Source of the DNA: Podarcis cretensis
Lineage: Eukaryota
NCBI GenBank assembly: GCA_951804945.1
Contig: OX638153.1
Coordinates: 30,504,001-30,568,000, forward strand
Direction: 5' to 3'
DNA length: 64,000 bases
Within the stretch, counting starts at the first letter, position 1. Each line of letters opens with the position of its first letter. The notes below the pieces were generated by a model. That model did not search any database. It was not told the origin of the DNA and saw only the letters and a list, made by a program, of their open reading frames with translations. A program made the translations under genes and the position numbers. Positions 17,301 to 23,300 of the stretch are shown here, piece by piece.

Positions 17301-20300
17301 AACCCAGCAGTTCAAAAGCACACTAGTGCAAGTAGATAAATAGGTACCACTGTAGCAGGAAAGTAAACAGCGCTTCCATGTGCTCTGGCTTCTATCACAG
17401 TGTTCCGTTGTGCTAGAAGTGGTTTAGTCATGCTGGCCACATAGTCGTCTCTGACTGGACTTAGCTGTCCAGAGGTCATTTACCTTTTTACCTTACCTAA
17501 TGGATATTTCCACTGTCTCTTTTTCACTTCTAATTTGTTTTGTTATGTGAACATGATACCTTTTCAGAGATAAACAGTAAAAGGAATGTTTATTTAACAC
17601 TATTCTGTTGCTAGTCAGCAAAATACAGTTTAACCGACACTTTGGGGACCTTTTTGCGGGGATGGAGGTGGAAATCTCTCCTTTCCAATTCCACGCTAGC
17701 TTGAGAAAAAATTATGTGAAACTGAAAATACAATTCTGTCGCCTAAGGCTCAGAAGTAACTTGCTACTATGAAAGATATAGTATTGGTCTACCTTCTCTG
17801 TGCCTGTAGTACACTTTCAAAATCAGGACATACTTCTGTCTTCCTAAATTCATTTTAGGGCAATAAAGGAGACCCTGGAACAGCAGGACCAACAGGACCA
17901 GCAGGACTTCCTGTAAGCATAGAGCATTATTTCTTCTTCCTCCACCTCACTTTCCCCATGAAATTCACTTTAATAATTCTACTGCACGAGAACATAGACC
18001 TTCTGCTGCAGTTACTTGAGTAAAGCTAAATGCTTTAAAATTTCTCCATAAGTAAAAAAAAGTATGATCAATTTTCTGTCTAGTTCAAAGGTGGCTAACT
18101 CCTAGCTTGGGGGGCTGGATCAGATTCCACAAGCAATTTTTTGCCATTCTCCACAAGGCTTCACCAATTTTGGTGTAAGAACAGCGGGGGTAATATTTAG
18201 GCAAATGGATGGGATGAATACAGAGGTTAAGACGTCTCCAACCCGCCCAGTGACCTAATAGCAATTCAGATCTTCTCCATCTCAGTCATCAGATGAATCA
18301 CTTTGTGAGCAAGGTTGTAGTTCTAAGGTGATATATGTGGTTCTCCTCGCCTCCCTATTTTATCCCAACAACCCTGTGAAGTAGGTCTGGCTGAGAGACA
18401 ATGATTGGTCAAATGTCACTCAATGAGCTTCATGGCTGAGTGGGGATTCAAATACTAAGCAGGGTACTGCACTGGCTTTAAAATGAGTAACTTCTTTAAA
18501 CATTCATACCTATATTATAGGGTTCACAAGGCTCACCAGGTGAAAAAGGAAACCGGGTAAGTCTTAAATTATGGCTCTTTCACTATTAAGGCCTTTAAGG
18601 AACGGTGGAATGATTAAATTTGTGAGGACATCAAAAGGGATAAGGTAAAATCTAACTGCCTAATAAAATATAACCCAAAGACTTATCATCCTTTTCAAGG
18701 ATGTTACCTGTTCAAGAATGTAGGAGCCTGCAGTAATATTGGCTGCTAGCAATAATAGAACCAGAGTTTGAAATCATTCTCATGAAACACTTGGAAAATC
18801 TTAAAATAAAGTTGTGATACAATACTTGAAGTAACGAGATGATAAGTCTTCATAGCACATCACAGTCATGATGAGCGTTACCTCTTAGGTTATGATTTCT
18901 CCAAGGCTGCTGTTGCGTAGAGTACTTAATCATTCCACCTCTGCTTTTATAACTTCCTTTTGATTAAAAAATAAATAAAATGTAGTTATTATTCCGATTA
19001 CTCTATCAAGCAAGTTCCTGATACTTTTTCAGTTGGTTTTAAATTTTAATAAAATGTTTAGAACAGTCTTGGTTAACTAAAACTGAAAATTCAGAAACCT
19101 CTTCAGGCTGGGTTTCTGTCCCAACAAGTTTATTGGCAGATGAGAACTGTCACAGAATGATGAGTGAACCTTCTGCCCAGTTAGACAAGAGTCATCAAGA
19201 AGAGACAGCTTTGTTTCTGAATTGCTTGTAATAAAGCTCTGGGGAAAGTGAGGCCACTTTCACTCTCAGTGCCATTCATAATTCTGAAACCACTTAAAAA
19301 GAGAATAAAGATCCAAAGCACCATGCAGGAGTATGTTTTGCAAAACTGCAACAAATACTTTGAAATCACAATACGGGGGCGGGGGATGAATTAGAGTGAG
19401 CAGCAACTGTGCACACACAAATCCTGCATAAGTATCCATTTAGTCATTAAGAAATGAAGAGTCCTTCCATATATCATTAGCAGACACTTTATGACTAATT
19501 GATGTTTTGGAAACATTTCTTGAGTCGGGTATGAAATGTGTGGTGCTATGGATGTAAAACAGTCAAGGGCAGCCTGTTATTTAACTTGCAGCATGATTTG
19601 GCAATGGGATACTTTGTGCAGCAGTTGTGGAAATTCTTTCCAAACTAGATTTGATGGTAGCACAACCCAATATTGGTTGCATTATGCTGTATGTTGACAA
19701 AGCGGGAAAAGGGGTGATTTAAAGCACAGAAGAGAGCAGGAGACTGCTGACCCCTTACCCTGCCCCTCCCACCCCACCTGCTTCTTTCCAGCTGCTTTTA
19801 TCCTAGCAGGATTACTTCCAGCCTAGGAGTCCTCCTGGCTGAAAAAGAGCTAAGAAGACATAATTTGGGTAGGGAGAAGTACAGAGAACAGGAGGTTCTC
19901 CTGCCTGCCCCTAATGTGCTTTTAAGTCTCACCCCAAGTTCTGTTTTATAAGGATCCAGTGTCAGGCCTGATTCTGACCCATGAATCTCATGCTGCCACC
20001 ACCCCATGCAGCTTGGTCCTTCTTTTCTGCTAATCAGTCCCATTGGCTCTTGTGTGATACCATAGGGGTTTATCTCCCAGAAAGAGCAGTCAAGAAAATA
20101 GAAATAAATGCAATATTATAACAGTTCATGGGAATGGAGTGTGCTCATTTGGACAAACCAGCTGAAAAGGTGCCAATGCTTATTCTGTGCATTAAACTTG
20201 AATTTGTTATTTCAACTGTTTTTTCTTCTTCTCCTGTCTTTGTGTGGTTTGCGTGTGTGTGTTCCTTGCTTCTACAGGTCTACCTTTGTCCCCCTTATCC

Positions 20301-23300
20301 CTTCCTGCTCTTTTGCCTTTTCTCCCGGATCCTTCCTTCTCTTCCTGCCACAGCCCAGTCTGCATTTTCTCCTGGATTATCCTCCCTCTAAGCCAACGTT
20401 TGATCCTGGGTGACCTCTCCTTTCCCATCCATTTTTCCTGCCAGTTTATTTTTGTTTTATTAAAAAAACAAACAACAAACCCATTTATTTCCCTTAAAAA
20501 AATATACCCACTCTGCCTGATTTTATGTCGTCTCCTTGCGCCACCTAATCCTTATACCAGTTACTAAATGAAACTCCCTCTGCAGCAATCCCACTTACAT
20601 CCTACATCCACAAGCACTTATCAAAATGTTTCCCTCTTTTCTATGTTGCTGATTTTTGTAAACTGGCTTGGAAAGATTTCATAATTATGTTGTCTTTCTG
20701 ACTATTGGTCCTTGGCTTGATGTTGGCATTATTCATTCAAGGTGACTTTGCACCATTGTTCAGAGAGGTAGCATGAGGCCGATGGTTTCCATTTTTATCC
20801 CTTTGAGGGTCTATTTTAAGAACTAAAGTAGAATAGAGCATTTTTACAAGAATTTTCCAATGTTGCCTCTCCTGTTAAATAAAAAAACATGGTGGATCCA
20901 GCTGATTAATATGTGATTTTTAAACAGAAGTGTGTCTTCCTAGGTTTCTTTTAAAAAATAATACAGAACTTCAGCAAGATTATGGTTTTTTTCAAAGTTA
21001 GTCATTGGGAAAAAAGTGTAATGATCCTCACCACTCATTTTACTTTTATTGTCCGCTTGGATATTGTAGGTCAGAATTCCCCACTAAGCTCAATGGGATT
21101 ACTTCTGAGGAAATGTGAGGAGAAGCTGTTCCCAATGCTAATTATTCTGAAACATTTCAGGAGGAACAGTGATTATTGAATCAATCAATCAATCAATCAA
21201 TCAATCAAAATAAGCTTTATTGCACTAGCCAAAGGCCATGACAAAACAATACAAACACTGCCCGGAAAAGAATATAACTGTATAAAGAAGAGCCACTGCA
21301 TGAAAATGGAAGACAAACACCTTGCTATTGTTTAAATTTGAGGTTTTAATAATACAAAATACACATACATTTAAACATAAAATGCCAAAGCCAGCAAAAA
21401 AAAAAAAAATGAAGAATGTTAAATGAAAAAGAAAATCAAGCTTTTGAAGTTAATTGTTAATACATTACAGTTAATACATTACAGTATTTTGTTTTTATGA
21501 GACACTGACTTGAAATGGATAATCCTAAATCTTTTATGTATCTTTTTTAATAAACTATTATTCACAGGGGGAAAGGGGCAAGAAAGGCTCTAGGGGGCCT
21601 AAAGGGGATAAGGGAGACCAAGGAGCACCTGGATTAGATGCACCCTGCCCATTGGTATGTTGTGTTTTATAAGGCACATTGTTTTATATTTTAAGCCACT
21701 GGGGAAGAAAGAAGGACAAGAGGCAATGACACCACAATGCAGGGACGTCTTGAATTGATTTCTTAAAAAAAGAAGAAAAAAAAGAAGAGGGGAGCTCTGC
21801 CATACCTACTGAAGTGATAAAGGAAGCCAGAGCAAGCCCTGGCCAAGTAAAACTGGCCCAGTTGAAAAAGCAATACCACTTAAAAACTTCTAGATTCACT
21901 GTTACAGCTTCTTCCATAGACTCAAGGCCAATTCAAACATGTGTGTTCACTCGTTCACTTGATGACTTGCTGCTGAATTAACTATCTCAAATGAAATGTG
22001 TTATGAGGCAATGTGAAAACTGTGTGATCTCATCTACAGGGGTTTGTTTGTAAAGGGTCATCACTTTACATTATAATCATCAAGTGAATGTGCATGTGTG
22101 AAGAGGGCCTGAGTAAAAGTGAAATCTAAAAGTGCCTTCTTCCTTCGCCAACTTTGGAGATGAGCAAATGTTGTATCAGAAAGATGTTGCAGCTGATTGT
22201 GTTGCAGGGTACTCAGTTTATGACACCCAGTGGAAAACAGACTGATCTAGTCCAAAGAAAAAGGAGAAAGTTCTTGACATTGAGCCACTTACATACAGAC
22301 AAATTACTCCAATTGTACTTTTAACAAAGAAGCAAGTGGCTTTCTGATGACACCTGAAAGATAATTTGAAACATGTGCAGCTATGTGGAGAGCTTCAGAA
22401 TTCCTTGCCTCCTATGTCTCAAAATAAGATTATTATTTTTTTAAGGAAATGTTCTAGTGCTAACTAGTATTTTACTTGGTTTACTTTATCTGGGTTATAA
22501 TAGCTTGTATCTGTATCTGGCCAGAGAACATGACAAGATTTTATTCTGTTTTCTTAATCATATCAAATTAACAGTACTTCAGTAAGATTTTCTAAAGATA
22601 TTTTAAAGTTAAGCTAATAAAAAATGTGACAAAACCCCAAAGTATTCCATTTCAGCTACTTCCTTAACTCTGTGAATTCTGTAGCAAAGCCATCCAAACA
22701 GCTAAAACACGCCTGCCACCAAGTTGCTTTTAAGTATCAGCTTCCTGGGAAGTCTTTCCCCAAAATTTGGATTCTCTAATCTTCTCCATTTAAAACTAGT
22801 AGCTTCTGATTATTTCAGAATACTATTTTTTAAAAAAGATATCATTGTATGTCATTGTACATAAAAACACTGGGACTATAACCTGAGTGCCTTTGAGTAC
22901 ATCATTGTTCTACTGAGTTTCTCCACCCATAAAATGGAGATTATCTGCACTGACTAAAGTAATTCTAGTGGTTGATTTCACGAACAGGGACTTCGAGGTT
23001 TTAAAGGCGAGAAGGGTGAGCCGGGGTTACCAGGGCTGGACGGGCTGGATGCCCCTTGCCCATTGGTATGGTGTTACCTTCCCTTTCCTGCATGTTTCAG
23101 TTTGCTTTTCCTTCCTTCCTTTATTGCAAGACCCTTTCCATATCCCCTCCCTTTCTCCCAAATGCTTGATGTCCATTGACACTCATAACAGCTTTTGGAG
23201 TGAGACCGGTTGCTACTACCATTTTCCTGCAATATATGAGGATAAATATGCTGGTTTAAGGAACATAAAGTTGCTCGCTCGTATCTGCTTTACTTCTTCT

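Follow-up and report, generated by a model that had tools for sequence, protein, structure and literature searches.

Organization of the COL13A1 3' region

The window analysed here is a stretch of 64,000 nucleotides of Podarcis cretensis DNA that carries the 3' region of COL13A1 on its forward strand. A Gly-X-Y exon of 36 nt (18521..18556) provides the donor that opens a 3.0-kb intron, and the element described below lies in this intron. Exon A (21568..21654; 87 nt, or 29 codons) follows, and after it exon B (22988..23065; 78 nt), which is homologous to exon A, lies in tandem with it and shares its 3' end. The last full coding exon, at the NC4 end, is located at 25197..25235, and the stop codon lies in the terminal exon at 26889-26891. 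The acceptors of exons A and B are both weak, scoring 5.4 and -1.1 with a crude position weight matrix of our own built from 35 training sites. A TGCATG, which we take to be an Rbfox motif, is found 3' of exon B at 23089..23094, and each of the COL25A1-type loci has two to three copies of GCATG downstream of its exon B.

The homologous tandem A/B pair is present in the window and in three related loci, namely the COL25A1 paralog of the same genome and two further COL25A1-type loci, L018 and L019. Exon A encodes the same peptide as the exon of human COL13A1 listed under substitution event 49 (PMC8373072 supplement). According to the same supplement, whose data are from human and not from P. cretensis, the human A/B pairs are catalogued substitution events dated to the Gnathostomata, and A and B are carried by separate transcripts. 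One gene model containing both A and B (P0032) was set aside, as no transcript support for it was seen.

An intronic element complementary to exon A

A tract of about 65 bases at 20264-20330 has its complement 1.3 kb downstream, in roughly the first 60-75 nt of exon A. The tract consists of a conserved core (20264..20305), which includes helix 1, and of a helix 2 arm (20306..20330) that can pair with the first 20-30 nt or so of exon A and the last base of its acceptor. The sequence-only reading had reported both helices, and both were recovered: 20275-20301, aligned without gaps to the reverse complement of 21605-21631, agrees with it at 22 of 27 positions and includes a perfect 10-mer, and 20308-20326, when read by hand against 21567-21586, gives 15 Watson-Crick pairs, three G-U pairs, one A-C mismatch and one bulge. 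Among the inverted repeats listed for 18000-24000, helix 1 is the longest. The pairing also goes further 5' than had been noted, to about 20267, opposite about 21635-21642. The acceptor boundary was said to be covered as well, which is true of the last G of the acceptor AG; since the duplex reaches no further than this base, it is mainly the exon body that is covered.

The 5' end of the element overlaps an acceptor-like tract of pyrimidines followed by CAG (20258..20277), of which 20267-20277 can also pair with exon A. Further 3', a second, partly conserved block (20366..20383; repeat family D3) resembles a local repeat of the helix 2 arm, and an identical translated hexapeptide at identical spacing is found in P0036. 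As had been proposed, neither arm looks like a transposon: there was one match in the genome itself, in a search that skips very common words, which speaks against the multi-copy arms of a transposon-derived inverted repeat. A comparison of 19500-21500 with Rfam gave no match near the gathering score and one weak match far below it, a GTDB pattern scan gave 0 matches, and a plus-frame translated search with the element gave one candidate and no scored match.

Among 8,526 windows of 60 nt on both strands, the element is the best non-self partner of exon A, with a lead of just 1.4 kcal/mol over the next window. Block shuffles of the entire intron reached the COL13A1 score in 1 of 400 trials, twice over. 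Dinucleotide-shuffled controls reached the score in 10 of 500 trials with an 80-nt window and in 0 of 400 with a tighter 67-nt window picked afterwards. Among 26 intron-by-exon tests, three gave 0-2 of 400, and these were the upstream intron against exon A in COL13A1, in the COL25A1 of the same genome and in L018. Likewise, in 70 exon-by-flanking-intron tests covering 36 exons of three paralogs, the same COL13A1 and COL25A1 pairings ranked as the top two (1/150 each; next 4/150). In L019 the intron-wide test was not significant (59 and 48/400) and the shuffle of the element itself was (4/400). COL23A1, in which no A/B pair was found, has no such tract (249 and 235/400). Across the four loci, the pairing of element and exon A has z values of -2.7 to -3.8.

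Counterparts in COL25A1

The COL25A1 paralog has an anti-exon-A tract of its own, which starts in the same register as the COL13A1 element. The 2.2 kb upstream of the exon-proximal block contain two intronic islands in common with L018, of which the tract is one; it appears as a conserved island in a second vertebrate locus and as a weaker one in a third. The COL13A1 and COL25A1 elements show no alignment to each other by BLASTN. In a matrix of duplexes between elements and exons, three of the four elements show a clear preference for their own type of exon: the COL13A1 element at -70.3 with the exon of its own locus, against -59.8 to -63.7 otherwise, the L018 element at -67 to -70 with COL25A1-type exons versus -60.4, and the L019 element at -60.7 versus -50.7 to -53.5. 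The COL25A1 element of the same genome has a weak preference (-62.9 to -66.0 versus -63.2). Changes on both sides of the duplex are seen at exon positions 45 (G-C versus A-U), 51 (C-G versus A-U) and 42 (U-A versus G-U or G-C), in pair tables that derive from folds optimised one by one and that tend to favour pairing. Single-base swaps were mixed, with 6 of 12 worse and 5 of 12 better for the COL13A1 element, and this view of covariation, which consists of four nucleotide pairs of element and exon, is suggestive at most.

When the true pre-mRNA was folded as one contiguous molecule, 50, 38, 53 and 30 exon-element pairs were expected at the four loci. Part of the loop is closed by a nested intronic helix of 14 bp that two COL25A1 loci share unchanged; in COL13A1 no nested helix above the range of shuffled sequences was found.

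Conservation of the element

Conservation is seen in the core of the element, where 78 of 84 translated codons are identical in six groups of contigs from other species, as against 34/72 and 23/70 in the flanks (57/142 together); these counts come from ungapped peptide comparisons of the element, exons not included, in a search that favours conserved cores. The helix 2 arm is less conserved (24/48 codons for 20306-20329). P0041, a tandem-repeat protein that lacks the core, was left out of the set. Exon A has a synonymous identity of 18/24 between paralogs compared with 15/40 in other exons, and this constraint is not specific to the paired part of the exon (paired 11/16, unpaired 7/8).

Interpretation of the pairing

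Because the element is complementary, conserved and has a counterpart in COL25A1, it likely folds onto exon A in the unspliced RNA. We therefore favour, at a probability of roughly 60%, the reading of the element as a conserved anti-exon within the intron, complementary to exon A over its first two thirds, that likely pairs with it in nascent RNA and would thereby repress exon A and favour exon B. The long-range masking duplex of the sequence-only reading is in this way supported by the statistics, the COL25A1 counterpart, the conservation and the whole-context folding, with the correction that it masks the exon body more than the acceptor.

The element could instead be a conserved pyrimidine-rich tract bound by protein, or an old inverted copy of exon A, its complementarity to a purine-rich exon being incidental. 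It is 83% pyrimidine, shuffled elements still reach about -53 to -59 kcal/mol, and its antisense reading resembles exon A down to the peptide level, which is what an inverted copy would give. However, composition-preserving nulls are beaten in two paralogs, the conservation peak coincides with the paired core, and paralogous elements that BLASTN cannot align each match their own exon, which is not expected from neutral decay of one ancient copy. We consider this explanation unlikely.

It is likewise improbable that the element is mainly an editing-complementary sequence for ADAR on adenosines of exon A, with any splicing effect secondary. GRIA2 at its Q/R site and GRIK2 have such sequences, which form imperfect intron-exon duplexes over a kilobase range. 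The full-context fold likewise predicts such a duplex here, imperfect and about 50 bp long, and editing of several adenosines on its exon side, such as A21592 within UAG, would change the encoded amino acid. The proposed target A21615 does stand opposite C20291 as an A-C mismatch at a synonymous third position, but it has a 5' G neighbour, which ADAR disfavours, and in the three COL25A1-type folds the matching A is in continuous helix opposite U. A21615 is thus not a conserved, favourably placed target, and this part of the sequence-only reading is poorly supported. The COL13A1 candidate differs from GRIA2 and GRIK2 in that its site of editing is putative and its mismatch is synonymous and absent in the paralog. 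No literature on A-to-I recoding of COL25A1 was found, and publications on COL13A1 and RNA editing or ADAR look unrelated by title.

A third explanation is that the element marks a hidden 3' splice site, which would open a decoy exon, a poison exon or an alternative terminal exon from 20278 onwards (37 codons; ATTAAA at 20459), with the pairing to exon A secondary or serving to hide this site as well. The AG at 20276-20277 scores 8.1, which ranks sixth among 180 AGs of the intron and is above both real acceptors, the conserved core runs a few bases 5' of the paired region, and both amniote-like COL25A1 loci have an ATTAAA 3' of the element. These scores come from the same crude matrix, though, and the AG at the corresponding place has scores of 0.4 (L018) and 0.1 (L019), while the strong AG of the COL25A1 of the same genome (9.0) is not kept in L018. 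The AGG of the hidden acceptor is also required by the exon pairing, and a hidden acceptor leaves unexplained why each element tracks its own exon, making this quite improbable.

That a single element toggles between masking A and masking B, and so enforces exclusivity by itself like ATE1 R3, is very improbable: exons A and B are tandem homologous alternatives, as their homology and the human transcripts indicate, and B ranks second among the partners of the element within the local pre-mRNA (-50.7, against -67.5) and pairs slightly better than shuffles in all four loci, but its z is just -1.4 to -2.3 (8 to 35/400), it equals an unrelated collagen exon (-51.7 versus -53.0), some pairing is expected because A and B are homologous, the upstream intron against exon B is not significant in any of the four loci, no anti-exon tract for B was significant (best 17/400 and 7/150), and so no shared element pairing competitively at each exon was found.

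A possible mechanism for exon A repression

On the masking reading, the element is transcribed 1.3 kb before exon A and so would be ready to pair once the exon appears. A duplex of some 50 base pairs would then cover purine-rich sequence of the enhancer type together with the edge of the acceptor, and exon A, with its weak acceptor, would depend on these. With exon A clamped, exon B with its downstream GCATG motifs would be chosen, and exon A would be used once the duplex is opened or a protein occupies the pyrimidine-rich element. The element probably sets the ratio of A to B and is not the sole enforcer of exclusivity.

A more speculative joint reading, which we put forward tentatively and regard as less likely than not to hold in full, is that the anti-exon was born with the A/B duplication, ahead of the separation of COL13A1 from COL25A1 in early jawed vertebrates, that it co-evolved with exon A until the elements had lost any mutual resemblance, and that it now acts as a protein-gated switch. 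A pyrimidine-binding protein on the element would free exon A, the bare element would clamp it, and Rbfox would promote B. The swap would then change the conserved C-terminus of two collagens involved in neuromuscular disease. COL13A1 is associated with congenital myasthenic syndrome 19 (PMC4678414) and COL25A1 with cranial dysinnervation or arthrogryposis (PMC12669723), and the choice between A and B alters part of an unusually conserved C-terminal region (PMC4678570).

A search of openly accessible papers, outside the PCCR and proximity-ligation catalogues, returned no publication on the element, and no mechanism for the A/B choice was found in the literature searched. An 'exon 37' of COL13A1 is described as mis-spliced in DM1 motoneurons, in a numbering not mapped to A or B. 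Hatje 2017 lists a two-exon COL25A1 cluster, 2215, not matched to A/B, and the COL13A1 rows of its structure table concern other exons. A COL25A1 event responsive to dsRNA-binding proteins in a DZF preprint was not counted, as it failed the authors' manual check and its exon is unnamed. The element offers a precise target for minigenes and antisense oligonucleotides and, if mammals keep it, would be a deep-intronic site where variants could matter.

Comparison with known systems

In ATE1, R1R3 and R3R4 pairings at exons 7a/7b hide a 3' splice site and R2R5, whose R2 is intronic, sets the isoform ratio (PMC7797038). COL13A1 resembles ATE1 in having vertebrate tandem alternative exons and a conserved long-range pairing, here a predicted one. 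However, ATE1 relies on intronic elements, one of them with two rival partners, whereas COL13A1 has one arm in a coding exon and the partner upstream of both exons, and competition for exon B is unsupported. The Ubs6.1-Dbs6.40 balancer pairing of Drosophila Dscam1 is similar in that an arm located in an exon pairs with an intronic element over a long range, and stronger pairing there leads to less inclusion of the first exon (PMC8791459). It differs in being an insect docking-site system with a large exon cluster and a downstream intronic arm; no docking site was found at the COL13A1 locus. The ISRE and Rbfox2 system of SCN-alpha exons 5a/5b shares with COL13A1 a paralog-shared RNA structure at duplicated exons and Rbfox sites, but there the elements lie in introns and their sequence is conserved from one paralog to the other (PMC12772994), while those of COL13A1 and COL25A1 no longer align mutually and track their own exons.

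The pairing is also like the PCCRs, conserved complementary regions less than 10 kb apart (PMC8052449). PCCRs were sought within conserved intronic regions, so that an arm in an exon body falls outside their definition, and one arm of the COL13A1 pairing is a coding exon; the main text of that paper mentions neither COL13A1 nor COL25A1. If the speculative switch reading is true, exon-body clamps would be a class missed by intron-only catalogues, and the exclusion of exon-intron duplexes from such catalogues is a reason to scan for more of them. The nested 14-bp helix of COL25A1 fits the PCCR form.

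The COL13A1 exon pair

The 3' end of COL13A1 lies on the + strand of this 1.5-Gb vertebrate genome and occupies the left part of the window. A 36-nt exon (18521–18556, +) is followed by a 3.0-kb intron, by exon A (21568–21654, +, 87 nt) and exon B (22988–23065, +, 78 nt), which are homologous and share the same 3' end, and then by the NC4 exon and an exon holding the stop codon. This pair is already known, because the A/B pairs of the human COL13A1 and COL25A1 genes are entered in a supplement table of PMC8373072 as events 49 and 50, both tandem-exon substitutions that the table dates to Gnathostomata; against the row in that table, the exon A peptide of the window is identical to the human one. 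The acceptors of exons A and B score −1.1 to 5.4, versus a training median of 9.3. Within 250 nt 3' of exon B there are 1, 3, 3 and 2 copies of GCATG, which we take to be an Rbfox site there, at four loci (COL13A1, COL25A1 of the same genome, and the COL25A1-type loci L018 and L019), with no copies in the 200 nt 5' of exon A.

The predicted duplex and its chance controls

Both helices that the sequence-only reading had proposed between an intronic element (20264–20330) and exon A were recovered: helix 1 (20275–20301 with 21605–21631) can pair at 22 of 27 positions, including a perfect 10-mer, and helix 2 (20308–20326 with 21567–21586) has 15 Watson-Crick pairs, three G-U pairs, one A-C mismatch and one bulge. 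Pairing continues 5' as far as about 20267, and folding the true contiguous 1,679-nt pre-mRNA gave about 50 expected element–exon A pairs. Coverage of the acceptor boundary, also claimed, held in this fold for the last acceptor base, the remaining pairing being to the exon body up to about exon position 60; the exon A donor showed no pairing to the element. The helix 2 arm recurs in a second, partly conserved block (20366–20383), for which a short duplex with the acceptor region of exon A is predicted at −22.3 kcal/mol. The pyrimidine-rich tract 3' of exon B (23066–23165) has modest complementarity to exon A that was not significant (41–66 of 400 shuffles).

A pyrimidine tract will pair with any purine-rich collagen exon, and several controls were therefore run. 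When 8,526 60-nt windows from the two strands were paired with exon A, the element came first after the exon's own antisense (−65.3 kcal/mol; runner-up −63.9), and among 13 exons the element preferred exon A (−68.3, then −53.0 and −51.7 kcal/mol), which was also among the longest targets. Local shuffles over the whole intron, position search included, reached the score in 1 of 400, twice. Dinucleotide shuffles, the energy control envisaged earlier, reached it in 10 of 500 with a loose window and 0 of 400 with a tighter window picked afterwards. When 36 exons were tested against their flanking introns, the two best of 70 tests, at 1/150 each, both paired exon A with the intron upstream of it, one in COL13A1 and the other in COL25A1; the next best gave 4/150.

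Conservation and paralogous loci

The element, translated antisense, was searched against ORFs called on genomic contigs, then as a profile, then through cluster members, yielding 2, then 6, and finally 13 core-bearing proteins in 6 groups; one profile match was dropped as a repeat protein. The core (20264–20305) was identical at 78 of 84 codons, the flanks at 34/72 and 23/70, and the less well kept helix 2 arm (20306–20329) at 24/48, as counted from one representative of each of the 6 groups, with third positions invisible, flanks ungapped and a search that favours conserved cores. One core change recurs in 4 of 6 groups and, if single-base and facing an unchanged exon, would turn the U-G pair 20281/21625 into C-G. 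Exon A is highly conserved at synonymous sites, both in its paired part and beyond it.

COL25A1 in the same genome has the same A/B pair, and COL23A1 has a single A-like exon over the stretch covered; both names follow from the peptides, that of COL25A1 being additionally checked. In COL25A1 an anti-exon-A tract with colinear pairing lies 1.7 kb upstream (intron-wide shuffles 0/400 and 1/400); the same test found none in the short intron of COL23A1. The COL23A1-like gene (L016–L017, G000 C2:61261170–61264740) contains a tandem array of about 20 Gly-X-Y exons of 63 nt, spaced about 153 nt apart.

A metagenome scan gave two host-like COL25A1-type loci, L018 and L019, whose divergence suggests an amniote-like and a fish-like origin. 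The L018 tract is a conserved island (intron-wide shuffles 2/400, twice), L018 and the COL25A1 of our genome being orthologs and not independent of one another. The L019 tract starts 295 nt upstream in the same register; it was significant in element-level shuffles (6/500 and 4/400) and not significant intron-wide (59/400 and 48/400). AGG opens all four tracts and faces the same proline codon.

Inside the COL25A1 anti-exon loop, upstream of exon A, lies a 14-bp intronic helix (L018:1457–1470 with L018:2409–2422), both arms of which are identical in the amniote-like loci of the two species (G000 C9 and L018); it is the top helix of each intron and at least equals the best of 12 shuffles. No nested helix in COL13A1 exceeded shuffles. 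An ATTAAA directly 3' of the anti-exon is conserved between L018 (L018:1250) and the corresponding site of COL25A1 in our genome. A partly conserved pyrimidine tract 60–100 nt 5' of COL25A1 exon B is weakly complementary to that exon (17–55/400 in our genome, 35–37/400 in L019, absent as a signal in L018) and may have arisen by duplication of the anti-exon.

By BLASTN, the element of COL13A1 did not align with that of COL25A1. The own exon type was clearly the best partner for three of the four elements, the COL25A1 element of our genome being nearly indifferent. Between paralogs, two-sided changes fall at positions 42, 45 and 51 of the exon; L019 differs in this way from the other loci at positions 18 and 36. 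All were read from pairs in separately optimised folds, which counts against co-variation. Also against it, single swaps in the COL13A1 duplex were worse in 6 cases, better in 5 and neutral in 1, although the four largest effects (3–4 kcal/mol) were all losses.

Proposed mechanism and alternatives

We regard the COL13A1 anti-exon element as real. Our literature searches gave no paper on it, though supplement catalogues may still contain it. Our preferred model, to which we give a probability of roughly 0.6, is that the element captures nascent exon A during transcription; the enhancer-type purine-rich sequence and acceptor edge of A would then be hidden and exon B favoured, both the direction and the regulation being suppositions. 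That the tract is incidental or a relic seems improbable, as this leaves the paralog result unexplained, and a role in editing is an unlikely reading of a duplex without a good site. We consider a hidden acceptor at 20276–20277 quite doubtful; its score is good in COL13A1, but the COL25A1 loci do not consistently retain it. An ATE1-type toggle is very unlikely: because pairing with exon B is weak, the element is better read as a ratio-setter.

In its predicted action the element resembles known structure-controlled exon pairs, as described for ATE1 (PMC7797038), the Dscam1 balancers (PMC8791459) and the SCN-alpha ISRE (PMC12772994); the competing-partner test came out negative for COL13A1. PCCRs are intron-only as defined in PMC8052449, and the COL13A1 duplex, having a coding arm, falls outside that definition.

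The window also holds two CpG-rich segments, 36001–40000 (201 CpG/4 kb) and 60001–64000 (104 CpG/4 kb), with about 17–49 elsewhere, which are probably promoters of neighbouring genes.
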